Sequence record: NZ_CP016173.1
DNA length: 64,000 nucleotides
From: a plasmid
Strand: one strand, 5' to 3'
Below, piece after piece: positions 1 through 44,059 of this stretch; positions within the stretch are counted from its first letter, which is position 1, and every line of letters starts with the position of its first letter. The notes below the pieces were generated by a model, which worked only from the letters and a program-made list of their open reading frames with translations, had not been told where the DNA came from and did not search any database. A program made the translations under genes and the position numbers.

Positions 1-798
1 ATTTGTGCGCAAGTAGAGGTTGTTGTGGTACGACCACGCGACAGTGCCTTCGAGCCCACGCACGCGCAGCCTTTTTGCTTGCTCGGGCGGAGTTCCATCC
101 ATGAAATAGGGCAGATCGCTGTCGATCGTAGGAAGCGACGTGATGCTGACCGTGCCTGATGCATCCGGGTTTCTGCCCGGAACCTTGGCGTCAACTCGAA
201 CATCCACGTCGTCTTGGCCGCTAATAAGCGTCAAGATGACCGGCGTTGAAAGGCCATTGAGCTGTACAGACACGTTTCCGTAAACCACGGGGCTAAGTGG
301 CTCAAGAGCGAGCACATTGGTAGGCGTCTCGTCTTTGCCCGCGCCCCCTCCTTCCGTATGTCCGTCGCTAAACAACTGCCGATTGAGCGACACCCGCTTG
401 ATCATCCATGGATTGCCATTTACGTCGGAGAAGACGATAGAGGACTGCTGCCCCCGAGATAGCCGAATAATGGGTGGTGGTACCCCTGGTTCCAGATTCA
501 CGGCGAGGGTCCGGGTAACAGGCCTTGCAGGGGCGACGTAAGGGGTGGCTTTGTAGCCCTCTCTTTGCAGATAAAGCCGCTTTACGCGGGCAGTTTGTTC
601 AGGGGTGAGTTGCAGCTGCTCCAGATCTCGGATCATGTCCTCCGAAATCTGTGCGTCGCTTGGATACTCGACCCTGGGCGCGGCTGCGCCCAAATTATTG
701 GGAGGCATCGGTGGCGGTGGCGGCGGTGCGTCCTGTGCTTGCCCGAGCGAGGCGTAGCTCAGGCATAGTGCGACGACGAAAGATCGGTACCGGCGCAT
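1..798 (-). CDS. IcmK/DotH/TraN-like T4BSS outer-membrane core protein, partial (3' end runs off the window)
   Basis: Hand translation of the minus strand from ATG (rc of 796-798) gives MRRYRSFVVALCLSYASLGQA (signal peptide) then Pro-rich region and a continuous reading frame to position 1. The start lies 5 nt after the IcmL-like stop. Gene order icmM-icmL-icmK matches Legionella and R64 traLMN. Not in the ORF track because no stop occurs within the window. Confidence 0.5.
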   Translation of the reverse strand, partial: MRRYRSFVVALCLSYASLGQAQDAPPPPPPMPPNNLGAAAPRVEYPSDAQISEDMIRDLEQLQLTPEQTARVKRLYLQREGYKATPYVAPARPVTRTLAVNLEPGVPPPIIRLSRGQQSSIVFSDVNGNPWMIKRVSLNRQLFSDGHTEGGGAGKDETPTNVLALEPLSPVVYGNVSVQLNGLSTPVILTLISGQDDVDVRVDAKVPGRNPDASGTVSITSLPTIDSDLPYFMDGTPPEQAKRLRVRGLEGTVAWSYHNNLYLRTN

Positions 799-802
799 CG
801 CT

Positions 803-1579
803 TCAATTCCGGGGAGGCTTGAGGACGACTGACTCCACCGCGATGCCCTTCTGGTTGGCGGCGGACGCCTGTATGCGTACTACCTTCACTGAAGCGCGAA
901 ACTCCTGGCGGGAGAGCGGCTTCTCAGAGCCGCCGACGTAAAACTCGATCGCGATCGGCACAACGACCGTCCAAGATTGGGGGATGCCCGTAGCTGGGGA
1001 CATTTCCTCCAGCTGCGGCGTTCTGGTGGCCATGGAACGAAGAATCAAGCGTCCATCAATCACGCGGCGCAGGTTGCCAGAGCTATCAAGTCCTTCCATG
1101 AAGGCTCTTCGGCCCGCCTCGGTGTACCAACGTGCGGCAGCCTCGTTGATCAAGCTGCGGTAATTCACGTAGTCATATGAATATGAGTTCAGGACCGCAT
1201 CCTTTGCGAAGTTGGTGACATCCGCGCCGCTGACGCGCGGCGTGCTTTCGGGGGTCACCTCGCAGATGGCGCGGTTATCTGTGGTGGGGATGTACCGATA
1301 CTTCGGGAAGGCGTAGAGCGTCCCAGCGATCACAATCACTAGGCCCCCAGCCAAGACCAGGTTGGTACCCCAGACGCGCAAGTTCCGGCGCTTCAGGTGC
1401 ACAACTTCCAGTTGAAGCCGCGACACCTCGCGTAGTACCGATGGCGCTTCGCCTGGCGTGGTGTCGGACGCAAGCTGCAGGAGGCGATCCTCGGAACCGG
1501 CCCCATCAGTTTTCTGATCTACGCGCGTCTTTTTCTTACCGAACATGGGGGAGTCTCTGCGTGGTTCCATCCAAGACAC
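803..1579 (-). CDS. IcmL/DotI/TraM-like T4BSS inner-membrane protein
   Basis: 258-aa ORF with a single TM helix (LVLAGGLVIVIAGTLYAF) and a C-terminal periplasmic domain resembling the DotI/IcmL family. Lies between IcmM-like and IcmK-like genes. True start may be the internal Met at 1546 or 1570. Confidence 0.55.
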   Translation of the reverse strand: MSWMEPRRDSPMFGKKKTRVDQKTDGAGSEDRLLQLASDTTPGEAPSVLREVSRLQLEVVHLKRRNLRVWGTNLVLAGGLVIVIAGTLYAFPKYRYIPTTDNRAICEVTPESTPRVSGADVTNFAKDAVLNSYSYDYVNYRSLINEAAARWYTEAGRRAFMEGLDSSGNLRRVIDGRLILRSMATRTPQLEEMSPATGIPQSWTVVVPIAIEFYVGGSEKPLSRQEFRASVKVVRIQASAANQKGIAVESVVLKPPRN

Positions 1580-1811
1580 AGACCGTCGCGGTCCCGTCGT
1601 AAAAGCTGATGTTCTCCAGATTAGAGAAGGCCAGCAGCCATGCCGTCAGAAGCAACAACAGACAAAGCAGGATGGGGTTGAGCAGTTCCCCCGCTTGCGC
1701 CACAGCGGACAACAAGCGGCAGAAGCGGCGCAAGCCTCGGGTGTCAATCTCCCTTCTCGGATGACCCCACGAGCTGCCAGATGTCCGCGTAAGCATAGTA
1801 GTTTTCTCCAA
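1536..1811 (-). CDS. Small membrane protein, IcmM/DotJ-like by size and position
   Basis: 91 aa with a hydrophobic segment (ILLCLLLLLTAWLLAF). Immediately upstream of the IcmL-like gene. Legionella IcmM is about 94 aa and sits in the same position. Confidence 0.35.
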   Translation of the reverse strand: MEKTTMLTRTSGSSWGHPRREIDTRGLRRFCRLLSAVAQAGELLNPILLCLLLLLTAWLLAFSNLENISFYDGTATVCVLDGTTQRLPHVR

Positions 1812-1834
1812 TCAGCGTGACATTCTAGCGGGAA

Positions 1835-1931
1835 ATTAGAAATGCGCAACGAGAAGAATTTGATGCAGCCTCATCAAATTCCTTATCGTCATCAAATTTT
1901 GATGTCGCGTCGGCTGGCTGATTAGAAATGA
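1835..1931. promoter_or_regulatory. Repeat-rich candidate promoter/operator region upstream of the leftward icmM-L-K-like operon
   Basis: Direct repeats ATTAGAAATG at 1835-1844 and 1921-1930. Inverted repeat GAATTTGATG (1856-1865) / CATCAAATTC (1873-1882). Palindrome CATCAAATTTTGATG at 1890-1904. Confidence 0.4.
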
Positions 1932-2357
1932 TATGCGGTCGTCCTGCCACACGCTGACCCGGCTCCCAGCGCAAACTTGGCGCAAAGAACGCGTATTGAA
2001 AGCGTATGTAGTGCGGGATCTACGCGCAAGTATCGGAGCGATACAGCGTTAAAAATGCGCGTACTACCGCCATTAGAGTGCAGCCATAGCGGCTCCACCG
2101 CGCGGTGCGGCAACAAGGCGCCAGTTAGGTGGTCGCCTTTGCAATCCGCTGGCACCTGGGTCACGCGGTAGAACTTTTGACGCGTGGTTCACGTTATTAC
2201 TGCCCAGGCTCAGAGCAAGCGGCTGCGCTGGTGCCAGCGCCCCGACTAGGCGGACGCGGTGGGCAGCGTTGTAGCGTTTCGAAATGGCCTTCGGCAGGGC
2301 TAAAGGGCGTGCATCACAAGGGCTATTGGTATTTCATCGGTCGGTCGAAGCAGATTG

Positions 2358-3503
2358 TCACATGGCGCCGGGGCTCTTGAGCCACTCCGTAGCTGCCTGG
2401 AGCGTCCGGTCGTCCGGTCGAGCCACATCGGGCTTTGGCGATTGCCCGCTGACAGCCATAAGCGACTCTGGGGATGGGCGAAATGTGTTTTTCATCCATC
2501 CACTCATTTTTTTGCCATAGTGACTCTTTGCGGTGGCCGGGCTCACATGCCCAAACAGGGCCGCAATTTCACGATCGGTCAGCCCACTGGCTTTGGCATT
2601 GGCTACAGCTTGGTGACGGCTGCTATACAGGGTTGGACGTGCGGCGGAGCCTGGTCGATACCCTGCCCTCTTGAGCGCGTTGGACATGCAGTGCCGGAGC
2701 GGGCCGAAAAAAGACTTTGCGAGCTGATCTTGAGAAAGCGTCGGGTTCTTGGCTCGATGCGCTTCGATGAGTCCAAGAAAGTGAAGCAGTGTGGCCAGGT
2801 CTTCCGCGCTGATGGAATGCAGGAGGATCTCTCGGTGGGTTCCGTTGGCACGCCCGTGTGATGCCTTGCTATTACGCACTATGAGCCCGAGGCAGGAACT
2901 GCGCGCTCGCGCATTGGGGCCAAGGTATGAAAATGTCGCCGCGTCAAACCATTCCTCCGGGCGCAACCCAACAAGCAGGTTTGCTCTCAGAAAGGCGAGC
3001 AAAGTCCCCACGTAAACCACGCCAGGGGTGCTTTTCCCATAGAGCTCCAGGGTATCGAGTGCGTCCTTGGGGAGCGCCTTCAGTTTAGGACTCGAAGTTT
3101 GTGACGTTCGGCGCGGTAAGGAGTTGGTTGCAAGCGCGCGGACGCTTTCGTAGGCCTGTTCGTACTCGCTTAGCCCATCGCTGCCATGGGCAATGACAGC
3201 CTGCGCCGTTTCTGCGAGCCAGAAGAGGACTGCCGCCTTCAAGGAGCGGGCCGTAGCCTGGGCGATTTTCTGCTGTGCGAACAGCCAGGCCAGGTGTGCA
3301 GCCATCCTGGCCGGAGTGACCTTGGTGGCATTTCCCTCAGCGGCGCGGATCTGGTTTTCGAGGACCAGAATTTTTCGGGCGTAGTCATCGCGGCTTTTGC
3401 TCTGCAGGCTGGCGCCAACCCACTCTTCGCTGCTGATGCGATCAATAAGCGTTAGCGGCGTTTTGCTGCCATCGATTCGAACGTTGCCATCATTGATTGC
3501 CAT
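2358..3503 (-). CDS. Tyrosine recombinase / integrase-like protein (int1)
   Basis: 381 aa. C-terminal catalytic-like region LYSSRHQAVANAKASGLTDREIAALFGHVSPATAKSHYGKK (R-H..., GH...HY) and an upstream GLRPEEW box-I-like Arg. Lies between divergent T4BSS blocks. Confidence 0.6.
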   Translation of the reverse strand: MAINDGNVRIDGSKTPLTLIDRISSEEWVGASLQSKSRDDYARKILVLENQIRAAEGNATKVTPARMAAHLAWLFAQQKIAQATARSLKAAVLFWLAETAQAVIAHGSDGLSEYEQAYESVRALATNSLPRRTSQTSSPKLKALPKDALDTLELYGKSTPGVVYVGTLLAFLRANLLVGLRPEEWFDAATFSYLGPNARARSSCLGLIVRNSKASHGRANGTHREILLHSISAEDLATLLHFLGLIEAHRAKNPTLSQDQLAKSFFGPLRHCMSNALKRAGYRPGSAARPTLYSSRHQAVANAKASGLTDREIAALFGHVSPATAKSHYGKKMSGWMKNTFRPSPESLMAVSGQSPKPDVARPDDRTLQAATEWLKSPGAM

Positions 3504-3730
3504 TGAGGTTCCTTGGCGGATGTTGCGGGCCCGTGGCCCCAGCGGCGAAGTGTGTCGCCAATGGGTTCGCAGCCTTCGGGGTGTGCATGGGCGGGGCGTG
3601 CCGCCAACCAGGTGTCATTGCGGCGTTCCGTGCTGACAAGCAGCTTGAGTTGATCGCATGGGGGGGCTGGCTGGTCACATGTCCCGTTACTTCCCATACG
3701 TTGCCTCGTACACATATATTCACTCGCGTG

Positions 3731-3801
3731 TTCATTGAAAACGTCATTCGTTATTGCGGCTATTAAGCCCATTGCGGTAACAGAAAGTCGCGTTCATTGA
3801 A
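3731..3801. promoter_or_regulatory. Two copies of palindromic TTCATTGAA, candidate operator or att-associated sites upstream of int1
   Basis: TTCATTGAA at 3731-3739 and 3793-3801 within an AT-richer stretch about 230-300 bp upstream of the int1 start. ATTGCGG is also repeated at 3753 and 3771. Confidence 0.3.
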
Positions 3802-3832
3802 GCGGCTAGTGCATGTTATTTGAGATGCAGGC

Positions 3833-3864
3833 GGTTTGCATAGTATGTGCAGACCTTTTTTTTG
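3833..3864 (+). terminator. Rho-independent terminator-like hairpin with a 9-T run (orphan; no annotated plus-strand gene ends just upstream)
   Basis: GGTTTGCA (3833-3840), loop TAGTATG, TGCAGACC (3848-3855), then TTTTTTTTT (3856-3864). 8-bp stem with one G-U wobble. Confidence 0.5.
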
Positions 3865-4091
3865 TGGTGTACAGGGACGGGAAGTAACGGGAAGCTGCTG
3901 GACCGTGACCATCCCAAGTCGGTCGGCGATCACGTTTCAATTCGAATGCCCGGCACGGCCTAAGAAATTTGTTCTCCGTATCCGCAGACGTTTCTCATAC
4001 GGCGGGCAGCAATGCGTAGTTTTGTGGCAGCAAGCAGTCGTGTTGCCGTCTGAAAAACGTAATGAAGTTGCGCGCACCTGGCAGACAGAGC

Positions 4092-4106
4092 GTAAACATT
4101 GCGTCA
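4092..4106 (+). promoter_or_regulatory. Variant copy of the recurrent motif GTAAACA[A/T]TGCGT[A/C]A upstream of the dotD-C-B-like operon
   Basis: GTAAACATTGCGTCA followed by TAATGG. Compare 23608-23622 and 28139-28153. Confidence 0.35.
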
Positions 4107-4387
4107 TAATGGCGTGAGCTGTGCGATTATAACGTGGTGGTATGAGTAGAAACCGCGTACGGAACAGTGTGACGACTGCGCGGGTACCGTGTGTCAAAAA
4201 AGCTGAGTTTTGATGCCAGGGCGTTGTCTGTGCGTCGAGAATGTGTAATGATTCGGCTGGGCTCGGAGCCACGGCCTTGTATGGCTGTGCCAGCGAACGG
4301 ACGCAAGGCGTGTCGTACGGTCTTTTGCGTTCGGCGATAAACCTTAGAAAATTGACGTTATACGTTCTTGAGTGGAGCCATTACATG

Positions 4388-4870
4388 ATCTGGAAGATAA
4401 GGCGAGCGTGGGTCGTCCTGGCGGTATTCCTCGGCGGATGCTCCTCACTCCGGCCTGGTGACGACGTGACCCCCGACGTGTACGCAAATCGCCTAATGGC
4501 GGACAAGATGGCGGTGGCCGCGGATGCTCAGCGGCAGTACGCCGCCCTAGTGGCGGAAGGCAAAGCGAGGGTTGAGCGTAAGCAAGAGATGCTGGAACTG
4601 GACCTCATCAACGTCGATTACATCGGCTTGCCCCAGGAGCTGCTCCAGACTCTCGCGTACCGGTACGGTTATCGGTACGTCGAGGTGGGGCAGCCCACCC
4701 AACTTCGCGCTATCAACATAAAGATGACGAGCGTGACCCCGACGGATGTGCTGCGTTCTATCGGGCAGCAGATTGACCGGCAAGCCGACGTGGTGCTGAG
4801 CATGCCGGCAAGGACTATCCGGCTCACCTACAAAACCCCGGTGCCAGCAGGCGGCAAAAAGAGGGGATAG
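4388..4870 (+). CDS. DotD/TraH-like T4BSS lipoprotein
   Basis: Start chosen at the internal Met giving MIWKIRRAWVVLAVFLGGCSS (signal peptide plus LGGC lipobox), about 160 aa. Sits directly upstream of DotC-like and DotB-like genes as in the dotDCB / R64 traHIJ arrangement. RBS GAGTGGAG lies upstream. Confidence 0.45.
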   Translation: MWKIRRAWVVLAVFLGGCSSLRPGDDVTPDVYANRLMADKMAVAADAQRQYAALVAEGKARVERKQEMLELDLINVDYIGLPQELLQTLAYRYGYRYVEVGQPTQLRAINIKMTSVTPTDVLRSIGQQIDRQADVVLSMPARTIRLTYKTPVPAGGKKRG

Positions 4871-4873
4871 GCC

Positions 4874-5821
4874 ATGCCGATGGATATGCCGCCCATGAGC
4901 CTGGAGCAGGCCCAGCGGCTCTATGAGGGGTCTGCTTACGTCGAAGTGGTGGATCAGTCTCGTGGTGGCAGCGCGGCGACCGCTGCCGCGCTCATGGCGC
5001 AGCAGAACGATGCCCAACGCGCACGGTCGCAGGCGCTTCTGGATACCGCGTTGGGCATCGGTGTCAAGGCCGGCATTGCCTGGCAACTGGACAAGATCCG
5101 ACGTGACGTGAAGGCCAACGAGCGAAAGCTGGACACGATCTACGACTTCGGCAATTTGATGATTCAGGGCCGGGTGGTGCCGCCCGTGATCGTGCAGGCG
5201 ACTGATCTTTATAACCAGGACGGCGATCTTACGCTTCGACTTTCTGGGGCCTATTACAAAATCGAGTCCCAGGCAAAGTTCGCTTCCGTAGCACCGTCTT
5301 GGCGTGGTTACCTGTCATTCCCGACTGCGGGGACGTTGCCCTCATCTTTCAACATGATCAAGCCCGCGACTTCGGCGGAAAAGAGTCTGTGGGAGCAAGG
5401 GGTCGCTGATGGTTGGCGTCAAGGAATAGAGCAGGCCGACATCATGCTGGAGCACTCGATGGACAGGCTCAATCGAGACTTCATAGGCATGCTTCGCTTC
5501 CACGAGTTTGTTCTGCAGGGGAAGATAACCATGCCGCTTATTGCGAGCGAGTCCATCCCTGTGACGAACAACGGCTCGACCATGGCGGTGGACGAGACGC
5601 TGTTGCGCATTACGGCGCTATCGGAGTTCGACGGCGATATGAAGAAATGGACGGGTCTCACGCCTTCGGCAGCGCCGAACAGCGATGTTCGCACACCGTG
5701 GATCACATCGGCGCCCCGTGCGGCGGCGCCGGCGCCTAGCAGCGCCACGGCCCAGACCTTTCCCGTAGTAGGGCAGGGGAGTTCAGTCCCGAGCGGGGTG
5801 GTGGATGGACACGACAATTGA
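4874..5821 (+). CDS. DotC/TraI-like T4BSS protein
   Basis: 315 aa, encoded between the DotD-like and DotB-like genes. The call rests mainly on conserved gene order plus size. No obvious N-terminal signal peptide was seen, so it is tentative. Confidence 0.4.
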   Translation: MPMDMPPMSLEQAQRLYEGSAYVEVVDQSRGGSAATAAALMAQQNDAQRARSQALLDTALGIGVKAGIAWQLDKIRRDVKANERKLDTIYDFGNLMIQGRVVPPVIVQATDLYNQDGDLTLRLSGAYYKIESQAKFASVAPSWRGYLSFPTAGTLPSSFNMIKPATSAEKSLWEQGVADGWRQGIEQADIMLEHSMDRLNRDFIGMLRFHEFVLQGKITMPLIASESIPVTNNGSTMAVDETLLRITALSEFDGDMKKWTGLTPSAAPNSDVRTPWITSAPRAAAPAPSSATAQTFPVVGQGSSVPSGVVDGHDN

Positions 5822-7004
5822 CAATGGCGGCGAACCTGGAGCGCTCCTGGAGCGGCTGGAGTGGAGGACCGCATATCGAGATCCGTTCAGGTTCCAAACC
5901 TCGGAGGACTTCAAGGCTCTGATGCTGGAGACCCTTGCGCAGGGGGCCAGCGATATCCTGATTCAGCCCGGATATCCGGTTTGTGCCGAAGTGAACGGAG
6001 GCCTCCGGGCTGTCAGTCACCGCGCGCTCGATGATAGCGAAGTGCGCGAAATCCTCGTCCTGTGCGCAAACCGCGATACAGCGTGGACCGATATCGTCGG
6101 TGGAACGGCAGTCAACACTCGGTATGAGGTCTTTGATCCAAAGCTACGTGATTTCCGGGGCGACAAGGTGCGGCACAAGTATCGCGTCAATGCGTCGCCG
6201 ATTGCATACCACGGGCAGACATCATGCCAAATAGTGATGCGAGCCATTGCGAAAGATCCTCCGGTTTATACGGAACTGGGGCTGACGGAAGACATTGTTC
6301 GCGCTGCATGTCCGGAGGACGGCATAGTGTACGTCGCTGGGCGTACTGGGTCTGGAAAGACGACCACCTTTGCATCGATTCTTCGCTTCATTCTTGAGAA
6401 TGACACGCCTATAAAAGGCAATCTAGTTACTCACGAAGAGCCGATTGAATTCACTTTTGAGTCGATCGCCAGCAAGCACTCGATAATTGTACAGTCCCAG
6501 ATCCCCACCCATTTTGCGGATTTTTACGCTGCCAACCGTGAGGCGATGCGGCGTAAGCCAGGCCTCATAATGATTGGCGAAATGAGGGATGAAGAGACAA
6601 TCCGTGCAGCGGTGGAAGCCTCACAGACCGGACATCCAGTATTCGGTACGGTGCACGCCACTAACGTCGCTTCTGTTGTGCGCAGGCTTATTTCCAGATT
6701 CCCTGAGGCTGAGCGCGCTACAGCGATCTACGACATTATCGAAAGCGCCCGCTTTATTATGGCGCAAACTCTAGTGCCGGGCGCAAATGGGCGTCGAGTT
6801 GCAGCGCGAGAGTGGTTGCAATGCGATCAGAGGGTTCGAGATGAGCTCATGGTCATGTCCGATATGGGGCGAGTGACGGGTACGCTCCGAGACATCATGC
6901 GGGCGCGGGGCTGGTCGTTCGTCCAGGAGGCCGACAGGTTGCTCGCAGATGGCGCCATCAGTGCCGCCACGGCGGCACAACTGCGTCAAAAAGCCGAGGC
7001 TTAG
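5805..7004 (+). CDS. DotB/TraJ-like secretion ATPase (PilT/VirB11 family)
   Basis: Walker A GRTGSGKTT; MIGEMRD (GE[IL]RD-type motif); His-box GHPVFGTVHATN. 399 aa. Overlaps the upstream gene, which suggests translational coupling. Confidence 0.8.
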   Translation: MDTTIDNGGEPGALLERLEWRTAYRDPFRFQTSEDFKALMLETLAQGASDILIQPGYPVCAEVNGGLRAVSHRALDDSEVREILVLCANRDTAWTDIVGGTAVNTRYEVFDPKLRDFRGDKVRHKYRVNASPIAYHGQTSCQIVMRAIAKDPPVYTELGLTEDIVRAACPEDGIVYVAGRTGSGKTTTFASILRFILENDTPIKGNLVTHEEPIEFTFESIASKHSIIVQSQIPTHFADFYAANREAMRRKPGLIMIGEMRDEETIRAAVEASQTGHPVFGTVHATNVASVVRRLISRFPEAERATAIYDIIESARFIMAQTLVPGANGRRVAAREWLQCDQRVRDELMVMSDMGRVTGTLRDIMRARGWSFVQEADRLLADGAISAATAAQLRQKAEA

Positions 7005-7157
7005 CGTCGGCGACGGACGACAGTGCGTGACAATGGTGGCAGACAGTGTTGACACGGCGGTTGTATCGCGCGATGTTGTGTGGTACGATCGCGCCACATG
7101 TCGCCTTGATAGTGTCAAGAGTGTGTAATCAATTTGATAAGGGTGGCGTGAGGAAGC

Positions 7158-7430
7158 ATGAATAAAGGCCGTTATCACTGGTCGAATTTGGCCCGAGAGG
7201 TTTTGTTCTTTGCTGTCCATTGGGCTGCTGCCGTGCCGTGGATTGTCCTGATTTTTTATCAGACCTGGACCATTTTCAGCGCGGCAATCCTGTCAGTCCT
7301 GGTGCTGTTTTACGTACGCTTCATTTCCAAAATGACGTTGCCTGCTGCATGGCGGTCTGTTTGGTACTTGATAAGTGGGCGTGAAAAAGCAACGAATAAC
7401 TGGTTTAAAGAATTTATTCGTCAACGATAA
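7158..7430 (+). CDS. Small two-TM membrane protein, IcmT/TraK-like by position
   Basis: 90 aa with two hydrophobic helices. Follows the DotB-like gene as traK follows traJ in R64. Preceded by an AT-richer intergenic region (7005-7157). Confidence 0.3.
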   Translation: MNKGRYHWSNLAREVLFFAVHWAAAVPWIVLIFYQTWTIFSAAILSVLVLFYVRFISKMTLPAAWRSVWYLISGREKATNNWFKEFIRQR

Positions 7431-7454
7431 ATAAACTGCGAAGGGTAGGTACAT

Positions 7455-8462
7455 ATGGGCAAGGTAAGTGTTGTCGGCGTGGATGATGGCCACTACGCGA
7501 TCAAGGTGGTCCTGGAGAACGGGACGACTTTTTCTGTGCCGTCGCGCGGCCGCGCGGGGCGCCATATGATTTCCTGGCAAAGCGACGAGGCTGGCCTGTA
7601 CAAGACGGAAGAAGGTCATGATTTCACGGTGCACGAGCATCTTGAAGGCACCGACGACACGAGGTTTGCAGACTACCCGCGCTCGCCTCTGAATCGGGTG
7701 TTGGTCCATCACGCTTTGCGCAAAGCGGGCCTCTCTGGTAAAGATGTGTCCATCGCTACTGGGTTGCCGGTGTCCTATTACTACCTGGCCGATGGGCAGC
7801 GTAACGACGCACTGATCCACGCCAAGCAGGAGAATCTGCGCAAGAAGGTGAGCAGCGGTGGGCAGCCTATGGCGAACATCGTAAAGAACGTGGTGACCAC
7901 GGAAGCGATTGCTGCCTATTTCGATCAACTCATCGATATGGACGGTTCCCCTTCCGAACAGTTCGAGACTCTCAACGATTCCGTGGTCGGCGTCATCGAT
8001 ATCGGCGGAAAGACGACCGACTGCGCCGTGATCTTCCCCGGTGGACAGCAGGTGAATACGGAGCGTTCGGGTTCTAACGATGTTGGCGTTCTCAGTCTTT
8101 ACAGTGCTATCGAGTCGAGGCTGCGGTCGCAATTCGACTTGGACAACGTTCCCCCGCGAATAATCGAACATGCAATCAAGACGGGAACGGTCAAGCTTTC
8201 GGGACAGGTCGAGGACGTACGAGAGTTGTTGGTCCGCGAGAAGGAAAACCTGGCCGAACAGATTATGGCTGGTGTGCGTACCAAAATCGGCTCCGGGAAA
8301 GACTTGGATTCGGTTTTGTTTGTCGGCGGCGGCGCAATCGTGATGGAGGATCAGTTGAAGAAGTATTTCCCGCATCACCGTTTCGCCAAGCAGCCCGAGT
8401 TCGCGAATGCGCGTGGGATGTTCAAAATCGCCAAGTACGTTTTCGGCAACGAGGGTGAGTAA
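7455..8462 (+). CDS. ParM/StbA-like actin-type plasmid segregation ATPase
   Basis: Phosphate-1 motif VGVDDGHYAIKVV; phosphate-2 motif GVIDIGGKTTDCAVI; adenosine motif VLFVGGGA. 335 aa. Confidence 0.7.
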   Translation: MGKVSVVGVDDGHYAIKVVLENGTTFSVPSRGRAGRHMISWQSDEAGLYKTEEGHDFTVHEHLEGTDDTRFADYPRSPLNRVLVHHALRKAGLSGKDVSIATGLPVSYYYLADGQRNDALIHAKQENLRKKVSSGGQPMANIVKNVVTTEAIAAYFDQLIDMDGSPSEQFETLNDSVVGVIDIGGKTTDCAVIFPGGQQVNTERSGSNDVGVLSLYSAIESRLRSQFDLDNVPPRIIEHAIKTGTVKLSGQVEDVRELLVREKENLAEQIMAGVRTKIGSGKDLDSVLFVGGGAIVMEDQLKKYFPHHRFAKQPEFANARGMFKIAKYVFGNEGE

Positions 8463-8463
8463 G

Positions 8464-8679
8464 ATGGCGAGCAAACCGCTGAGAACCGGCGTGTTGCTTG
8501 CTCCACGCTACCCAGTGGAACGCGATGCAATAGCTCTGCTCAAGGCCGTACCCAGCGGGGAGCGCACAACGTTTTTGCGCTCGCTGGTTTTGATCGGCTA
8601 CAACGATCTTCGTAAAGATCGCGAGCAGGCACGTGAGCGCGTCCAACAACCCAACCGAACAGGGAGCGATCGTGACTAA
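8464..8679 (+). CDS. Small basic protein downstream of parM-like, possible ParR/StbB-like adaptor
   Basis: 71 aa starting MASKPLRTGVLLA, 1 nt after the ParM-like stop. Called from position only. Confidence 0.3.
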   Translation: MASKPLRTGVLLAPRYPVERDAIALLKAVPSGERTTFLRSLVLIGYNDLRKDREQARERVQQPNRTGSDRD

Positions 8680-9250
8680 TCAAGCCGCAAAAAAAGAGCG
8701 GTTCGAGATCCGATTGCGGGCCAATATCGCGGCCGAGGCGGATTTGCTGGCAGAGCTTGAGGCCCGGGATGGCGTATATGGGGGCAAAACCGAGCTGCTT
8801 CGAGAATGCCTACGGCGGGGGTTTGTCGCGCTACGCACGGCTGTCGATAAGCAGCCTGCTGACGCCACGGAAGAATCGATCCTTGACGCGTTGGCTTCAA
8901 CTTTTCCGACAGGCGAATATAGCTACCGAATCGGCAAGCTATACCTGGATGCAAGGGAAGCGGTTACTCACGGTACGCCTATGGAGCCGTCGGCGTCAGA
9001 CGTGACCCGGGATAACCGGGATGACCAAACTCGCAGCCCTGAGAGCGCCTTTCCTGCTTCAGAACTAGCAGAGGCCTCGTCACCTGCAGGCCCGGTGCCC
9101 CAACCTGAGGCGCCTGTATCGGCGGACTCGCCTGGCCCTGTGCAGGCATCAGAGCCCAGCGATAACCCGAAGCCAAGGCCTCCAGCGGTGGATTGGGGTC
9201 GGCTGCGCGGAATTGCGGGGCGTGAAGATGATGGAACGGAGAACAGGTAA
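8633..9250 (+). CDS. Hypothetical protein with a charged N-terminal helix region and a Pro/Ala/Ser-rich low-complexity tail
   Basis: 205-aa ORF. True start is uncertain; a GTG at about 8692 is possible. N-terminal ERFEIRLRANIAAEADLLAELEAR could be a ribbon-helix-helix or relaxosome-accessory fold (speculative). The C-terminus is acidic and proline-rich. Confidence 0.3.
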   Translation: MSASNNPTEQGAIVTNQAAKKERFEIRLRANIAAEADLLAELEARDGVYGGKTELLRECLRRGFVALRTAVDKQPADATEESILDALASTFPTGEYSYRIGKLYLDAREAVTHGTPMEPSASDVTRDNRDDQTRSPESAFPASELAEASSPAGPVPQPEAPVSADSPGPVQASEPSDNPKPRPPAVDWGRLRGIAGREDDGTENR

Positions 9251-9262
9251 AGCGCGGTAGAC

Positions 9263-9293
9263 AGGCCCTCAAGCGTGCTTGAGGGCCTTTTTT
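9263..9293 (+). terminator. Rho-independent terminator
   Basis: AGGCCCTCAAG-cgtg-CTTGAGGGCCT (perfect 11-bp stem) followed by TTTTTT. Lies between the 8633-9250 gene and the next gene. Confidence 0.7.
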
Positions 9294-9304
9294 GGATCTT
9301 GAGC

Positions 9305-10588
9305 ATGGCAACAAGCAAGTCCCAAGGGACAGACCGGACATTCCAATTCAGCGATCCAGCAGCCGTAGCCGGAATCATCGTTATGGTGATTGCCGCCGTA
9401 TGGATCGCATGGTATTTCGCACATACGCAAATCAGCGCGCTGTATGTATACGTGCGCTATGCAGAGGTGTGGGTTTTGAATTTGGCGGGCGCTTTTTTCA
9501 ATCTGCCCGGTATTTCGTCTGCTCACAATTGGGTGCAACGGGTATGTGCGCCCGAGAGAACTATTCTGCTATGTACGCGGGATTTTTCAACGCTTAGTTG
9601 GGGAGAAATCACTTCTTCATCCATGGTCTTTAATGGTCTATGCGTCATTATTCTCGGCGGTTGGTGTTTTCGCATGTTTCGCCAAGTGTCCCGCACCCAC
9701 CCCGGCTTTCGATTTACCAAGAATCACTCCATTAAGTCGTTCGTGAAAGAAAATGCCGCGCTGTACCCCCATCTAAAGCTTGTGGAGAGGCTAGACTTGG
9801 TAGCCAAGCCGCTTGCCGATCCGCTCTTTGGCATGAGCCTCACGTCTCGGCAATTTGCGTACAAACACCGCCTTATCAGCGGGTGGCAAAAAATGGCAGA
9901 TGGCCAGTATGTGCCCGTTTTGAACCGGGAGGCTGCTACGGCGGTATTTCTCGCGCAGCTCGGCCCTCATTGGACTCGTTCTGCGGATCTGACGCCTGGG
10001 GAGACGCTATTGCTCGCAATAGTCCTCCCACGGGTAGCTGCGACAGACCCCCGTATGGATGATGCGGCATTCAAGAATGCGATGGCCGATAGTGATGGTC
10101 TCATCAAGTGGTGTTGGGACCACTTCACGTCGTCGGTGGAGCGCCAGGGCAGAAAGCGGGAGAGCGGCGATGACGGCTATGCATGGTTGCGGCCTGCATT
10201 TGATCTGTCCTATCCCAGGCAAATAATCGCGCGCTATCTGATGCACCCGGAGGTAAAGCAGATCATCGAGCAGCATGCATTCCGCAGGACAATTCTGTAT
10301 GCGTGCTATGTCCGCGCAAGTGCCCTCGGCGTATTTCCGCCTGCGGACGTGCGATGGCTGCGGTTTTACGATCGGGAGCTCTGGTACCTACGCAGCAGCA
10401 TCGGCAGGCAGGTGGCTTTTGCGGAAGGCGGCTCGGCCGTCTATTGCCACTACCTATACGAAGCAAAAGCGGGCTGCGCCATCGTTGAGCCCCAGCTCGA
10501 CAAGGCCGTGAGCGGGCTGGAAGCTGCCATGCACGGGTTCCGCTACACCGAAGCCGACAAGAAGGCGTATGAGGAAGCCAGGGGATAA
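9305..10588 (+). CDS. Membrane protein, possibly DotM/IcmP/TrbA-like (tentative)
   Basis: Start moved to the ATG at 9305, downstream of the terminator; the ORF-track start at 9275 would include the terminator. N-terminal TM helices, about 427 aa, immediately upstream of the DsbC/TrbB-like gene as trbA precedes trbB in R64. Confidence 0.3.
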   Translation: MATSKSQGTDRTFQFSDPAAVAGIIVMVIAAVWIAWYFAHTQISALYVYVRYAEVWVLNLAGAFFNLPGISSAHNWVQRVCAPERTILLCTRDFSTLSWGEITSSSMVFNGLCVIILGGWCFRMFRQVSRTHPGFRFTKNHSIKSFVKENAALYPHLKLVERLDLVAKPLADPLFGMSLTSRQFAYKHRLISGWQKMADGQYVPVLNREAATAVFLAQLGPHWTRSADLTPGETLLLAIVLPRVAATDPRMDDAAFKNAMADSDGLIKWCWDHFTSSVERQGRKRESGDDGYAWLRPAFDLSYPRQIIARYLMHPEVKQIIEQHAFRRTILYACYVRASALGVFPPADVRWLRFYDRELWYLRSSIGRQVAFAEGGSAVYCHYLYEAKAGCAIVEPQLDKAVSGLEAAMHGFRYTEADKKAYEEARG

Positions 10589-16630: not shown

Positions 16631-19021
16631 ATGAGCATGCCATTCGCTCCGTGCACGGATGCAGCGTGTACGGACGACACCTCGGTAGAGATCCTCAAAT
16701 GGGTTTTCGGCCCCGTGATCAACGGTCTGTTGAACGGCGGAGACACTTCGAAAATTGAGACATCGGCCAATATCTTGGCGACGATGTTCAGCGTCTACGC
16801 CAGCGGAATCATGATCGTCGCCGGGTTCATCGTCAGTGGCGTGGTGATGGGCAGCGTCATGAATACGGCCAATGACGGAGAGGTCATGGGCAAAAACTGG
16901 TCAACGCCCAACACCATCATGCGGGTGGTCTCGGGCGGGGGAGTTCTGCTGCCTACGGCAAGTGGCTTTTCCATCATCCAGCTCATCGTGCTGATGCTTG
17001 CCCTTTGGGGGGTGGGCTTCGCAAACCTCACTTACCGGACTGGCATGACGATGGGGCTACTGAGCCCAGCCGGGATCGTAAGCAATGCGGCTGCGCCCGG
17101 TTCTTACTATGGCATGCGGGAATTCGCAAAACAGTACATGGGCGCAATGTATTGCGCCCGTGCTGCCAATGCCGCCTACACGATGGCCTCCGGATCACGA
17201 CCCTCGGTGCAATTGAACGGCGGCGCCGGCACGCCGATAGGTAGTCGCATGGAATACAGCTTCGCAATCAGCGACACCAACAGTGCGACCAACCTAGCCG
17301 GGGGAGCTCCCATTTGCGGAGTGGTGAAGCTTTCGCTGTATAGCGCTCAGAATCTCACGGACCCGACCGAGAAGGCGCTCGATTCCTTAAGGGTCGCGGT
17401 CCAGCAGCAGAAATACACCGAGGTCCAAAGCCTCATGGCGGACATCAAGTCCTTCGTGGACTCATGGCCCACATCAATCAACGCGGATGGATGGGACAGG
17501 GTTGATTCCTCTACCTTCAACGATATCGTCAAGCGACACGAGGACCGGATCGCTACTCAGCTCCTGAATAGCCTATCGCAACAGCAAGGCGCAATGGACA
17601 AAGGCATGGAGACGTATCTCAATGACACTTTGTCAAAAGGAGGATGGGCGTCGGCTGGGGGCTGGTTCCAGCGCGTCGGCATGGCTCGCGGCACCTTGGC
17701 GCAAATCTTCGCCGAATCAGTGGGGTCTGTTTCGGCTCCGACGACGAGCGGATTGCCGCAAAGCGAGCAAACCAGGGAATTTGCGAGCAGCGTCAACACC
17801 ATCCCTTATATCGTGCAAGCCAAAGCAGATGGAAAGCTGCCCGACGATGCCAAACGGAATTTGACCGCCGAGAGTTTGAACGGTCTTCTACCAAAAGACA
17901 TCGATGATTCCATCAATATTTCCACCGTGCAGCAGAACATGGCTTCGGCGGTGTCACGTTGGACAAACGGGATGATGGAAGCCATTGTTGGGATGGCAAC
18001 AGGAGCAGGGAATGATGGAAAAGCCAGCGCGATTTTTCCATGCGGCTCTGCAGGTGAAATTGGTGGCTCCATCAATCGCATGAAATGCGTTGGGGACTAT
18101 CTGACCCTGCAATATGTCGCGGTCCTCGGCACGGACGCGTTTCTCAAAACATCAGCGACAGGAGCCCGAATAGCTGCGGGCGTAGTCAGTGGCGGCAAGT
18201 TCCTGGGCACAGGTCTTGAAGTTGACAAGGTGGTCACCCCCTTCTGGGATTGGATGATGGCCGTTCCGATCCGCTGGCTGAGCACCATAGGCACCTATCT
18301 ACAAACCCTCGCATTCTATTTTGGCGTGATCATTCCCACGTTTCCTTACACGGTTTTCATGATCGTGGTGGTGGGTTGGATCCTTGCGGTCTTGCAAACG
18401 TGTGTGGCTGCACCCCTATGGGCAGTTATGCACATGACGCCCGATCGGACCTTCATTGGATCGCAAACCCAAGGCTATTTGATGCTACTTGCCCTGTTTG
18501 TTCGGCCTGCATTGGCGGTGCTGGGGCTTTTCGCGTCAATGCTGATCTCCGACCCCATCATCACCTATATCGCCAAAGCATTCTTCACCATGCACAGAGA
18601 CGTGGCCAGCTCTACTGGCGCGATCGGCTCTGTGGCTTCAATAGTGACGTTCTTTTGGTGGCTGATCGTGTTTGGCTTGACCCTTATGCCCGTGCTGTGG
18701 ATGACTTATGGGTTGCCCCAAGCTCTCCCAGACGAGGTGCTCCGCTGGATAAGCGCCGGCATTGGCGACCTGGGCGCAAGCGCCGCAATCCCCGAGGTGC
18801 GTGGCGGGCACCAGAACGCGCAACGTATGGTTGACCAGCTTTCCAACGGCCCCCGAACGACCAGAATCGGCGGACCTGAGCGTCCGCGCGGCGGAACGCC
18901 TCCAAATGGCGGGCCAGGCGGTGGCAGGGGAGGGGGTAGTGGGCGCAATGAAACTCTGCTGAGCGTCAACCAGCAGGGCGTGACACCAAGCCCCACCAAT
19001 TCACCCGGATCCACGTCCTAG
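16631..19021 (+). CDS. DotA/TraY-like polytopic inner-membrane T4BSS protein (tentative)
   Basis: 796 aa with multiple TM helices in both N- and C-terminal thirds, a large central soluble region and a Gly/Pro-rich C-terminal tail. Size and topology resemble R64 TraY / DotA. RBS AAAAGGGGA upstream. Confidence 0.45.
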   Translation: MSMPFAPCTDAACTDDTSVEILKWVFGPVINGLLNGGDTSKIETSANILATMFSVYASGIMIVAGFIVSGVVMGSVMNTANDGEVMGKNWSTPNTIMRVVSGGGVLLPTASGFSIIQLIVLMLALWGVGFANLTYRTGMTMGLLSPAGIVSNAAAPGSYYGMREFAKQYMGAMYCARAANAAYTMASGSRPSVQLNGGAGTPIGSRMEYSFAISDTNSATNLAGGAPICGVVKLSLYSAQNLTDPTEKALDSLRVAVQQQKYTEVQSLMADIKSFVDSWPTSINADGWDRVDSSTFNDIVKRHEDRIATQLLNSLSQQQGAMDKGMETYLNDTLSKGGWASAGGWFQRVGMARGTLAQIFAESVGSVSAPTTSGLPQSEQTREFASSVNTIPYIVQAKADGKLPDDAKRNLTAESLNGLLPKDIDDSINISTVQQNMASAVSRWTNGMMEAIVGMATGAGNDGKASAIFPCGSAGEIGGSINRMKCVGDYLTLQYVAVLGTDAFLKTSATGARIAAGVVSGGKFLGTGLEVDKVVTPFWDWMMAVPIRWLSTIGTYLQTLAFYFGVIIPTFPYTVFMIVVVGWILAVLQTCVAAPLWAVMHMTPDRTFIGSQTQGYLMLLALFVRPALAVLGLFASMLISDPIITYIAKAFFTMHRDVASSTGAIGSVASIVTFFWWLIVFGLTLMPVLWMTYGLPQALPDEVLRWISAGIGDLGASAAIPEVRGGHQNAQRMVDQLSNGPRTTRIGGPERPRGGTPPNGGPGGGRGGGSGRNETLLSVNQQGVTPSPTNSPGSTS

Positions 19022-19046: not shown

Positions 19047-19724
19047 ATGACACTACTTCCGGCGTTGCAACCTATCGTTTATGGGCTGACTTCCGAAGTC
19101 CTGGCATACGAAGCTCTTGCCCGTTGGCGCCGCGACGGCAAGATTTTAGGCCCGACGGATCTTCCTGAAGCTCCGCAATGGAGCGGAGTGGACATTGACA
19201 TGCTGTCGGCCATTCTCGACCGCGCAGAAACGGTGTCGGGTATCGCACCGAGGTTATTTATCAATGTCAGTGCGAGCACGATTTCCGAGCCAGGCCGCTT
19301 GGCTACGTGGATCTCGCACCTGGCGAAGATCACAAGCTACGCCACGTTCGCCGTCGTGATCGAAATAACAGAAGGAATTGGCGACGACAAACTGCAAGAG
19401 GCATGGCCTCAGCTCAAGCGCCTTGGTGTCAAGCTGGCTTTGGACGATTTCGGTGATGGGCGGTCATCCAGGGCACGGCTTGTCCGCTATGACTGGGACT
19501 ACTGCAAGTTCGAGGGTCACACTGTACGGGACCACCGCATCCAGGAAGCCATTAGGTATTGCCAGAACAGCGGCATTCTGCCCATCGTGGAGCGGGTGGA
19601 ACATCAGAAAAGCAGCGAAGAGTTCGCGGATATGGGACTGCATTGGCAGCAAGGCTTCCTACACGGGCGTCCCGTGCTTGTCGATAACCTCGCCGAGAGG
19701 ACTGGCAATGTCGTTATCGCATGA
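19047..19724 (+). CDS. Stand-alone EAL-domain c-di-GMP phosphodiesterase
   Basis: EALARW (EAL..R), NVS, VIEITE, LALDDFGDGRSS (DDFG.G.SS), DYCKFEG (catalytic-region Lys), ERVE and GLHWQQGFLHGRP motifs all present. 225 aa. Starts 25 nt after the DotA-like stop, with RBS GGTGGA. Confidence 0.75.
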   Translation: MTLLPALQPIVYGLTSEVLAYEALARWRRDGKILGPTDLPEAPQWSGVDIDMLSAILDRAETVSGIAPRLFINVSASTISEPGRLATWISHLAKITSYATFAVVIEITEGIGDDKLQEAWPQLKRLGVKLALDDFGDGRSSRARLVRYDWDYCKFEGHTVRDHRIQEAIRYCQNSGILPIVERVEHQKSSEEFADMGLHWQQGFLHGRPVLVDNLAERTGNVVIA

Positions 19725-19888
19725 GCGATGCAAAGTCGCCGCTGCCATCGCGCTTTTGCAGAACGCAACCGTACCCGGATGACCATGAATAGCCATCCAC
19801 GCAAGCCGCCGTAAGGCCTCCCAAAAAGTAAATCATCCAGTCCACGAGACGCCTATCTCCCGCCAAGCCATGGCGGGTAGGGATTCTT

Positions 19889-25619: not shown

Positions 25620-26750
25620 TCAGGGCAGGGCGCCAAGGTTGGCTTGCAGGTCGGCCAATTTCTGGGCATCTTCCTGGCGCTTGCGGTCAATCGTCTTGGC
25701 GTAGATCCGTGTCGTGCGCGGGTCGGCATGCCCTAGCTCGTCTTGGGTCGTTTCAAGCGAGGCTCCCGCTGCCAGGCGGTGGGTGGCATTGGTATGTCGC
25801 ATCCAATGCGTGGTCATTCGCATGACTTGGCTGCGGATGTGCTCATCCGGACAGTCGCCTGCGGCCGATTTTGCCAATTCGTGCACGATCAAGCCGATGG
25901 AGCGAGGCGTCAAGGCCCGCGAACGGGCTCCCACGTTGATTGTCGCCACGAGTGGGATGTTCTCGCCAGGCAGCGGGAAATCTGCCAGGCCCCAGCTTTT
26001 TCGGTAGCGCATGAGCTCCTGCAGCAAGCTGGAATTCACGGCCACCATGCGCTCTTTTTGCCCTTTGCCAATGACGCGCAACAGCCAGCCGCTGTCCGTC
26101 CGTAAGAAATCTCCCATCACGCCGTTGGCCGCTTCTTCACGGCGCAGTCCGGCATGGTAGAGCAGGGCGAATAGCCATCTGGCGCGAGCGGCGACCGCGC
26201 GGTCGCGTGTGCTGCGCTCCGGCCGGTTGCACACCCAATCCCAAAGCCAAAACCAGCTATCGAGGTGCAGAGCTCGTTGCTGCCGCTCCGAACTGATAAC
26301 AGCAGGCTTCATCGACAGCTTGAACACGTTGAATTGCAGATAGCCCGCGTCCTGCAGGTATGAGCACATGCCGCCTAGAATCGTCCTGGTCTGGGCTATC
26401 GAGGCTGATGATAGCGGCGCCGCGAGCACCTGCGTTGGTGCTAGGACAACACCGCGCGGCGGCTTTCGAGGCCGGAGCCAATGAGCTGGAGGATTGGCCA
26501 GGTGGGCGTAGAACAGATGGGCGTGGTCCACCTTCATTTCCTTAAGCGACAGGCCGTTCTCGCCTAGCCACAGCAGTAGCCTGATGGCTTCACGGCGGTA
26601 CGCGTCAAAGGTGTTCGCGGTGCGACTGCCCTTGGCCCTGATCCAGACCGCAGCCGCCTGGGCATCTGTTTGGACGCCCAGGGCATCGCCAACCGCCTGA
26701 TCGGCACCAGGCGCAAGCAAGCGTCCGGGATCCAGTTCGGCCAAATTCAT
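25620..26750 (-). CDS. Tyrosine integrase / site-specific recombinase (XerC/XerD-like, int2)
   Basis: 376 aa. LRREE (box I Arg); HWMRHTNATHRLAAGASLETTQDELGHADPRTTRIYA (box II H..R..H, GH, catalytic Y). Confidence 0.8.
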   Translation of the reverse strand: MNLAELDPGRLLAPGADQAVGDALGVQTDAQAAAVWIRAKGSRTANTFDAYRREAIRLLLWLGENGLSLKEMKVDHAHLFYAHLANPPAHWLRPRKPPRGVVLAPTQVLAAPLSSASIAQTRTILGGMCSYLQDAGYLQFNVFKLSMKPAVISSERQQRALHLDSWFWLWDWVCNRPERSTRDRAVAARARWLFALLYHAGLRREEAANGVMGDFLRTDSGWLLRVIGKGQKERMVAVNSSLLQELMRYRKSWGLADFPLPGENIPLVATINVGARSRALTPRSIGLIVHELAKSAAGDCPDEHIRSQVMRMTTHWMRHTNATHRLAAGASLETTQDELGHADPRTTRIYAKTIDRKRQEDAQKLADLQANLGALP

Positions 26751-28995: not shown

Positions 28996-29000
28996 TCGCG

Positions 29001-29366
29001 ATGTCCAAGACCAGCTTCAACACGCGTCACTTTCGCTGGGCCATATGCGAATGCTGTAGCGGCCACGGTAAGGTTGAGCATCCTGCCTTCAAAAATGGGT
29101 TCACATCCCAGGAATGGAGCGACATGGCGAACGACTGGGACGCCGAAGGCGAGACGAACGGCCAAGATCGCTACCTCGCCGGAGCGTATGACGTTCCGTG
29201 CGACGCTTGCGAAGGAACCGGCAAGGTGCAGCAGCCGGACTTCCGCGCCATGGGCCGTGATGAGCGGCGCGCCTATGTGAGCTACCTACGCGAACAGCGC
29301 GAGGTCGCCGAAATCGATCGCGTCATAAGCGCAGAATCGGCGGCGGAGCGCCGCCTGGGAGGCTAA
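29001..29366 (+). CDS. Hypothetical zinc-ribbon protein
   Basis: CECCSGHGKV … CDACEGTG (two CxxC pairs). 121 aa, with RBS GGAG. Confidence 0.45.
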   Translation: MSKTSFNTRHFRWAICECCSGHGKVEHPAFKNGFTSQEWSDMANDWDAEGETNGQDRYLAGAYDVPCDACEGTGKVQQPDFRAMGRDERRAYVSYLREQREVAEIDRVISAESAAERRLGG

Positions 29367-29370
29367 AGCT

Positions 29371-44049: not shown

Positions 44050-44059
44050 GCCGCGCCCC

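Follow-up and report, generated by a model that had tools for sequence, protein, structure and literature searches.

A candidate tyrosine recombinase-like relaxase in Dot/Icm-type plasmids

Three relaxases that resemble tyrosine recombinases have been described, TcpM, MobK and MpsA, and the origin of transfer (oriT) of each lies directly upstream of its gene (PMC8152469, PMC6414798, PMC12857230). They show no significant mutual similarity (PMC8152469), and their class, MOB_M, has been reported almost only in chromosomes, with integrative conjugative elements (ICEs) of the mating-pair formation class MPF_G or with integrative mobilizable elements (IMEs) (2026 preprint 10.64898/2026.01.13.699239). 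Among plasmids with a Dot/Icm-type conjugation system (MPF_I, type IVB), pND6-2, pS04 90 and pPAD8 conjugate experimentally, and the papers that describe this mention neither a relaxase nor an oriT (PMC6133989, PMC11826091). Here, we analyzed a 64-kb stretch of a plasmid of Bordetella flabilis (record NZ_CP016173.1; replicon of ~118.7 kb); this whole stretch is called the window, and all coordinates are window positions. Its first 7,430 positions are the central junction of a Dot/Icm-type system of the same kind, at which two blocks of transfer genes diverge from a control region of ~0.9 kb, next to a gene for a tyrosine recombinase-fold protein (TR below). The host family is a broad set of ~100-200-kb plasmids and integrated elements. 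Our lead hypothesis, inferred from the comparisons given below and held tentatively, is that TR is a MOB_M-like relaxase and that a conserved element in the intergenic region is its oriT.

The recombinase-fold protein

The gene in question is the following:

2358-3503, minus strand: 381-aa tyrosine recombinase-fold protein (TR), candidate relaxase, assigned by fold model and catalytic residues

Profile searches hardly recognize TR. Against the Pfam family Phage_integrase (PF00589) it reached E = 0.024 and 14.8 bits, under the gathering cut-off of 27.1; no NCBIfam model matched, and a profile search of the PDB sequences returned no significant match. An entry that is 100% identical is named 'site-specific integrase [Bordetella flabilis]' in the database. 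The AlphaFold model, computed from an alignment of 27 homologues, has a predicted local distance difference test score (pLDDT) of 84.4 and two domains, core-binding and catalytic. In a Foldseek search of the PDB, the model matched XerA, lambda Int, Cre, XerH and Tn1549 Int over both domains. All the PDB matches listed were tyrosine recombinases, aligned over 300-350 columns (~330 for XerA, lambda Int, Cre and XerH, with probability 1.0), and the best structural matches had template modelling (TM) scores of 0.4-0.5 and identities of 12-16%. The putative active site, R181-K213-Y293-R296-H319-Y329, consists of residues that are each invariant or at least 90% conserved among 27 diverse members, with Y293 taking the place of the first His in the catalytic R-K-H-R-H/W set. 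Telomere resolvases likewise have a Tyr where the pentad usually starts its His residues. The C-terminal tail of ~50 aa (FRPSPES...) is conserved as well. The family is compact, with 292 clusters at E≤1e-30 in a set of 1.84 billion representatives.

A preliminary description of this DNA, made from its sequence, had named a 381-aa tyrosine recombinase at 2358-3503. The fold model and the conserved catalytic residues uphold this assignment despite the sub-threshold Pfam score, and together they show TR to be a genuine, diverged tyrosine recombinase with a complete catalytic set. Rci of plasmid R64, mentioned there as a tyrosine recombinase of similar size, matches the TR profile over 48 columns only, those of catalytic box II (hhalign probability 11%).

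One family member (P0069, 8 member sequences) aligns a Phe at the position of the nucleophile Tyr329, and is either an inactive variant or locally misaligned. The window also encodes a second, canonical tyrosine recombinase at 25620-26750 (minus strand; Pfam Phage_integrase, 1.1e-14), which is 55% identical to one in the Xanthomonas plasmid pF and may serve in resolution or integration. An hhalign comparison of the TR profile with this protein, a single-sequence target, gave no similarity.

A bipartite element upstream of the recombinase gene

Relatives were gathered by protein search, a megablast of positions 1-8500 against PLSDB having given no match. When the intergenic regions between TR and dotD of distant relatives were aligned, only a few blocks were conserved. 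The features of this region in the window are:

3672-3695: TR-proximal arm of an inverted repeat, TGGTCAC, 3 nt, TCCCGTTACTTCCC
3879-3911: dotD-proximal arm of the inverted repeat, GGGAAGTAACGGGA, 12 nt, GTGACCA
3696-3878: interior between the arms, 183 bp, conserved in length and variable in sequence among relatives
3833-3863, plus strand: terminator-like hairpin followed by T8, inside the interior and pointing toward dotD
3651-3658, minus strand: invariant octamer TGCGATCA (TR-sense strand), in 13 of 13 aligned family members
3527-3606, minus strand: three tandem short hairpins of the form TG-stem(4-5)-CAC..loop-stem, between the proximal arm and the TR start codon
3591-3606, 3545-3560 and 3527-3541: the individual hairpins H1, H2 and H3

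The 14-mer GGGAAGTAACGGGA occurs in the 64 kb only at 3682-3695 (minus) and 3879-3892 (plus), with 0 occurrences expected by chance. An analogous pair of arms was found in 54 loci, with a GGAGTAAC/T core, arms of 13-26 nt and a position 180-500 bp upstream of the TR start. The spacing between the arms is 151-204 bp in the relatives and 103 bp in Yersinia. The arms differ by lineage yet stay complementary, with compensatory changes at 14 of 20 positions over 26 lineages. Double changes numbered 106, compared with 39.5±4.7 in shuffles, and none of 500 shuffles reached the observed score, although for this covariation it must be borne in mind that the arms had been chosen by complementarity. The register score of the arms was 0.48, against 0.08-0.14 for slid controls.

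The orientation of the interior relative to the TR gene was constant in the 54 loci, with 364/364 inter-locus matches on the same strand; 36 opposite-strand matches correspond to an internal palindrome. A segment that flips freely, as a fim-like switch would, is therefore not supported. A weak promoter-like site (3691-3720) lies on the same strand as the terminator-like hairpin and upstream of it, and a small RNA (sRNA) of ~135 nt is conceivable. In a sigma-70 promoter scan, promoter-like matches were no more frequent than by chance. The mobilisation module of SGI1 needs an sRNA. The interval between the arms is occupied in other lineages by palindromes of a different sequence or by GCGATACGTAC repeats in phase, with T-tracts.

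The three hairpins are found at matching positions in relatives, where the stems differ in sequence but are complementary (55 observed versus 7.5±2.8 in shuffles; 20 loci). RNAalifold support for them was modest. Folding of 3504-3681 showed no thermodynamic excess (z=0.05), so that the hairpin claim is based on conservation, and an Rfam search of 1500-4600 found no family.

Two variants were seen. In the Yersinia locus (L005, 8569-8636 and ~8790-8860), the 103-bp spacing encloses a perfect 21-nt inverted repeat, and four tandem TGRCAGCAYAYCTGYA hairpin repeats precede the TR gene. On a Rhodanobacter contig (L024, 190-410 and 5959), the arm pair lies ~5.5 kb upstream of the TR gene instead of 0.2-0.5 kb, as if DNA had been inserted between the two; no DotD, DotC or DotB match was detected upstream in the 6-kb flank searched.

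The combination of TR with a bipartite site throughout a family is new, and the conserved site itself represents a new recombination-site architecture whether the enzyme is a relaxase or a resolvase.

Gene content and conservation of the split layout

The transfer genes around TR were assigned as follows:

1-798, minus strand: DotH/IcmK (TraN-like), first 266 aa, the remainder being left of the window (PF12293, E=2.9e-43)
803-1579, minus strand: DotI/IcmL (TraM-like) (PF11393, E=2.2e-22; NF038072, E=3.7e-24)
1536-1811, minus strand: small membrane open reading frame (ORF) of 86-91 aa that heads the dotI-side block, at the traL/icmM position
1856-1904: operator-like palindromes GAATTTGATG-6-CATCAAATTC and CATCAAATTTTGATG, preceding the block of the small ORF and dotI, from a repeat search
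4385-4870, plus strand: DotD/TraH lipoprotein, 161 aa, opening the right-hand block (PF16816, E=2.1e-11)
4874-5821, plus strand: DotC/T4SS_TraI lipoprotein (PF16932, E=8.6e-51)
5805-7004, plus strand: DotB ATPase (PF00437, E=1.9e-33; TIGR02524, E=2.4e-83)
7158-7430, plus strand: IcmT/TraK (NF038220, E=9e-7, under the curated cut-off)
7455-8462, plus strand: ParM/StbA actin-like segregation protein (PF06406, PF21522)
9275-10588, plus strand: DotM/IcmP (PF23127, DotM_C, E=4.8e-34)
16631-19021, plus strand: DotA/TraY (TIGR04346, E=3.8e-112, 376 bits versus a cut-off of 100)

Profile searches thus found the core components DotB, DotC, DotD, DotH, DotI, DotM, DotA and IcmT in the window, with Pfam matches above the gathering score for DotH, DotI, DotD, TraI/DotC, T2SSE and DotM_C. 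They bear out the preliminary description in that Dot/Icm (MPF_I) transfer genes form two divergent blocks around a tyrosine recombinase-fold gene. The complete dotH encodes 310 aa (assemblies L001/L002), and gene callers place the start of dotI at 1546 (247 aa). The lipobox of DotD, LGGC, is visible in its translation. The IcmT homologue of one further locus (L097) matches PF28014, IcmT_2.

Several details had to be revised. The identities proposed for the right-hand genes (DotD, DotC, DotB and IcmT) stand, but the start of DotD is the ATG at 4385 and not position 4388. The ORF at 1536-1811 had been called traL/IcmM-like; its position agrees with this, but it has no Pfam or NCBIfam match and no detectable homology to TraL or IcmM, and it is not similar to the R64 TraL. 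It is kept at the same position in relatives with 30-62% identity. The remaining core genes had been expected left of the window, which probably holds for DotG and DotO but not for DotM and DotA, found to the right and inside it. In L001/L002, a 465-aa TrbI-like (DotG-like) ORF and a 1029-aa ORF follow beyond dotH, and their homologues are annotated as DotG and DotO in pSP13-1, pF and the Yersinia plasmid. A DotL-type coupling protein was seen in relatives only and not in the inspected part of the B. flabilis replicon. Finally, the intergenic DNA had been described as repeat-rich, and this holds for the one significant inverted repeat and for the palindrome cluster at 1856-1904 but for nothing beyond them. 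Judged from their sequence and location, the palindromes probably form a repressor-binding site at the promoter of the small ORF/dotI block. For the opposite block, work on pPAD8, of the pND6-2 family, found the dotD promoter experimentally active and the region upstream of dotD to be a regulated promoter (PMC11826091).

The order of the right block is dotD-dotC-dotB-icmT-parM-...-dotM-...-dotA, and that of the left block TR, small ORF, dotI-dotH-dotG-...-dotO. An identical split order is present in P. syringae pSP13-1, Xanthomonas pF, the 153-kb plasmid of Yersinia pseudotuberculosis IP31758 and an Aeromonas plasmid, as well as in an element of Lautropia dentalis (L025) inside a 1.72-Mb contig. 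Among the 71 genome and metagenome loci with a TR homologue, ~39 have TR adjoining these genes of the type IV secretion system (T4SS), nearly all in the split layout; TR identity over the related loci ranges from 28 to 100%. Metagenome contigs L081-83 and L091 are exceptions, with dotI-dotH divergent from TR. In pND6-2, TR is divergent from dotD-dotC-dotB-icmT-parM, but the dotI block is elsewhere. The divergence of TR tracks that of DotB, DotI and ParM (Spearman 0.91, 0.81 and 0.94, respectively), and the order is fixed and co-inherited.

The preliminary description had explained the layout by a rearrangement or inversion of the transfer region from an R64-like order, possibly by the recombinase, or by an integrase module inserted into the operon. 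Since the same split order recurs across relatives, a recent inversion or insertion is refuted: synteny rules out both a whole-block inversion and an integrase insertion, and the split layout is ancestral, fixed and ordinary for the family. The layout is already present, without comment, in public plasmids. A fixed order in which the recombinase plays no part had also been considered; the order is indeed fixed, but the recombinase belongs to it invariably. No inversion polymorphism was seen: the window is 100% identical to two independent assemblies and to the ~118.7-kb B. flabilis record, three independent assemblies of the element being identical to one another, and six near-identical Xanthomonas plasmids are collinear.

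The gene parM is embedded between icmT and dotM in all plasmid relatives and is absent from the Lautropia-type elements (L025, L075, L076), in which TR is kept. In a Comamonadaceae cluster (L014-L018, L021, L023, L028, L050, L052, L054-L059, L063, L067, L071-L073), TR and the inverted-repeat module occur with none of the queried Dot/Icm genes within ±5-6 kb. Several of these copies are in contigs of ~0.4 Mb up to a complete chromosome. They adjoin variable defence cargo (type I restriction-modification, HipA, Schlafen/AlbA_2, TIR), TR lies >5 kb from either island end, and the repeat is intact; in L028, the recombinase gene is interrupted. The nearest relative of the island TRs sits in a normal type IVB secretion system (T4BSS) context, and the islands could be mobilisable islands that exploit the plasmids.

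The relaxase question

MOB-suite typing called all 14 PLSDB plasmids with a TR homologue at E≤1e-45 non-mobilizable, as well as 20 of the 25 plasmids of the pND6-2 type, although they are MPF_I (34/39 overall). A coupling protein is present in relatives. The element presents the same combination as the hosts of MOB_M relaxases: a T4SS and, in relatives, a coupling protein, no other recognised relaxase, and a repeat-rich cis region abutting the gene. Few non-T4SS proteins are common to this plasmid and pND6-2; among them are TR, ParM, a protein resembling ArdC and a compact topo-IA-like protein. The possibility that a relaxase hides among three large ORFs (1120, 733 and 564 aa) was rejected. 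None has a family match, and since they were not found in ~69 of the 117 kb of pND6-2, they are unlikely as a family-wide relaxase.

Five observations fit a role of TR in conjugative DNA processing: its invariant position heading a transfer block, a dedicated site in the divergent control region, the conserved catalytic residues, the lack of a recognised relaxase, and its retention both in the ParM-less chromosome-borne element and in the T4SS-free Comamonadaceae islands. TR and the adjacent conserved site are the best candidates for the relaxase job in plasmids that have no recognisable relaxase. TR molecules would bind the two arms of the oriT in the intergenic region, one strand would be nicked through Tyr329, and the nucleoprotein would be handed to a DotL-type coupling protein. 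TR would thereby fill the role of the missing relaxase, and the intergenic region would double as the site of the divergent promoters.

A broader proposal, which we put forward with more reserve, is that the whole Dot/Icm (MPF_I) plasmid/ICE clade uses full-length TR as its relaxase on a bipartite oriT made up of two co-evolving inverted arms ~180 bp apart and three hairpins, and that a detached TR-oriT cassette makes hitchers of the Comamonadaceae defence islands. The clade in question includes clinically relevant resistance plasmids of the pND6-2 type in Pseudomonas, plasmids of plant pathogens and Yersinia plasmids.

A number of observations weigh against a relaxase function. TR keeps a core-binding domain, which the known MOB_M relaxases do not carry, and an enzyme with this complete architecture and catalytic set could equally be a true recombinase such as a multimer resolvase. 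Tyrosine recombinases form 3'-phosphotyrosyl links, a polarity opposite to that of classical relaxases. The parM gene is in the same gene block, and maintenance functions are interleaved with T4SS genes. No similarity was detectable by hhalign between the TR profile and TcpM (pCW3, NC_010937), a comparison that is uninformative, like that with the second recombinase, because the targets are single sequences. The relaxase searches have their own bounds: no large ORF of the window matches a relaxase family, but ~45 kb of the replicon are outside the inspected part, and neither the available annotation table of Xanthomonas pF nor ~69 of the 117 kb of pND6-2 names one, but the PLSDB tables are incomplete. 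In addition, a further protein of the window could, on its sequence motifs, be an alternative candidate for the missing nicking enzyme:

44451-45980, minus strand: compact 509-aa type-IA-topoisomerase-like protein with a Toprim DxDxEG motif and a TYPR active site

Its TYPR tyrosine aligns with Y319 of E. coli Topo I, and the protein is conserved in pF and pND6-2. The neighbouring genes encode a full Topo III (41590-44175) and the ArdC-like protein (39517-41187).

Alternative functions of the recombinase

The main rival explanation is that TR is a plasmid multimer (dimer) resolvase like those of Cre/loxP, ResD/rfsF and Rsd/crs, that the repeat element is its resolution site in a stability module with ParM, and that the relaxase is another, unrecognised protein. 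TR has the two-domain recombinase fold and all the catalytic residues, the site adjoins the gene as it does in resolution systems, ParM is encoded 4 kb away in the neighbouring block, and the plasmids are large and presumably low-copy, judging by their size and by the presence of parM. For the nicking, the topo-IA-like protein (44451-45980) would be on hand. This explanation does not account well for the Lautropia element, where TR is kept between T4SS blocks without ParM inside the 1.72-Mb contig, nor for the chromosomal islands with the TR module, in which dimer resolution would be pointless. Moreover, the canonical recombinase at 25620-26750, conserved in pF, could do the job, inverted arms ~180 bp apart are unlike the core-site geometry of known resolution sites, and the missing relaxase would stay unexplained. 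We regard a resolvase function as improbable.

TR and its sites might instead serve above all to regulate the two divergent transfer promoters or to shape the DNA there, through DNA binding, catalysis being of secondary importance. Selection on chemistry is argued for by the conservation of the R, K, Y, R, H, Y set over 28-100% identity, and the module also occurs away from T4SS promoters; both speak against such a role, which we consider very unlikely, even if the sites do lie between divergent operons, the pPAD8 region upstream of dotD is a regulated promoter, and a constant arm spacing of ~160-200 bp would suit DNA looping.

An integrase/excisionase of an integrative conjugative lifestyle, as the database name 'site-specific integrase' and the relatives in chromosome-size contigs (Lautropia, Ottowia, Comamonas) would have it, is less likely again. 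In the integrated Lautropia copy, TR is flanked on either side by 5 kb or more of T4SS genes, and in the Comamonadaceae islands homology between hosts extends >5 kb to each side of TR. In every chromosomal copy the inverted-repeat element is intact rather than divided between attL and attR. There is no tRNA gene in the vicinity, and a canonical integrase is encoded elsewhere on the replicon.

Least likely is an inversion by TR, either of one whole T4SS block or of the 183-bp segment as a fim-like on/off switch of the divergent transfer operons: perfect 14-nt inverted repeats do surround a short segment beside the TR gene and upstream of dotD, this segment holds a terminator-like hairpin and a weak promoter-like site, and R64 Rci and the fim recombinases are precedents, but with every inter-locus interior match on the same strand, collinear Xanthomonas plasmids, identical assemblies of this element, a block order fixed across the family and promoter-like matches at chance level, inversion is largely refuted at the assembly level. 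Even taken jointly, the regulator, integrase and invertase functions are improbable.

Other genes of the window

Directly after dotA (19047-22594, plus strand), genes for an EAL-domain protein and for a 901-aa inverse autotransporter, an adhesin of the intimin/invasin type, were found. By its type and location, the adhesin could serve mating-pair or host-cell attachment. The cumulative GC skew peaks near 29 kb (~29000-30000) and falls steadily beyond, matching a switch in the main gene orientation. A KfrA-like gene is located at 33612-34610, and no replication gene was identified within the 64-kb window.

Implications for mobility prediction

Standard tools such as MOB-suite and PGAP recognise no relaxase in the 100-200-kb Dot/Icm plasmids and for this reason class them as non-mobilizable, and members of this plasmid family nevertheless conjugate and spread carbapenemase genes in Pseudomonas. 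What is new here is the family-wide occurrence of TR with a bipartite site, together with the hypothesis that the two supply Dot/Icm-type conjugative plasmids with their unrecognised relaxase and oriT. Should this be true, mobility predictions for the family would be systematically wrong, and the poorly understood MOB_M class would reach type IVB systems and enzymes with a full recombinase architecture. It would also offer a tractable system for how a recombinase that forms 3'-phosphotyrosyl links starts conjugative transfer. If TR were a resolvase instead, the family would still be without an identified relaxase. The split gene order, being ordinary for the family, is not to be taken as a rearrangement.

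Comparison with known systems

The IncI1 plasmids R64 and ColIb-P9 share the gene set, traH/I/J/K being equivalent to dotD/C/B/icmT and traM/N/O/U/Y to dotI/H/G/O/A. All blocks of R64 are co-oriented (traE-K ... traL-Y), as the preliminary description had stated for traH-K and traL-N, but these are not contiguous as it had assumed, since nuc and sog (~4.4 kb) intervene between traK and traL. R64 further carries a MOBP relaxase, NikAB, with its oriT at the far end, as well as a thin pilus and a shufflon with Rci; in the inspected part of the present replicon none of this was found. The system is not R64-like in detail, as had been supposed: besides the lack of NikAB, DotB scores 280 bits on TIGR02524, the Dot/Icm model of the Legionella-type DotB, and 191 bits on the model for TraJ of IncI.

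Closer relatives are pND6-2, pS04 90 and pPAD8 of Pseudomonas and the 153-kb plasmid of Y. pseudotuberculosis IP31758. They have the same type of T4BSS, are typed as MPF_I without a relaxase, and encode a TR homologue of 31-34% identity divergent from dotD-dotC-dotB-icmT-parM. pND6-2 differs in that mvaT and other genes follow TR and the dotI block is elsewhere; its repeat motif consists of TAGGTCACCTGTGACC copies, and its TR is shorter (323 aa).

The best structural matches of TR are in the Cre/loxP, XerH/difH and lambda Int systems, which it resembles in both domains at the low identity given above. Their 30-bp core site contrasts with the two arms ~180 bp apart found here.

With the MOB_M proteins TcpM of pCW3, MobK of pIGRK and MpsA/MpsB of SGI1, TR shares the catalytic fold of tyrosine recombinases, a nucleophilic Tyr and a pentad of the RK(H/Y)RH type. 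Their genes, like that of TR, lie directly beside a repeat-rich cis region in an element without a classical relaxase, and are usually labelled 'integrase' in databases. TcpM and MobK have no core-binding domain and MpsA obtains one in trans from MpsB, whereas TR has its own N-terminal helical domain of the core-binding kind. Finally, the reported associations of MOB_M proteins are with ICEs of class MPF_G, IMEs and the Gram-positive pCW3 system, whereas TR, with its predicted relaxase role, is coupled to MPF_I/Dot-Icm plasmids.

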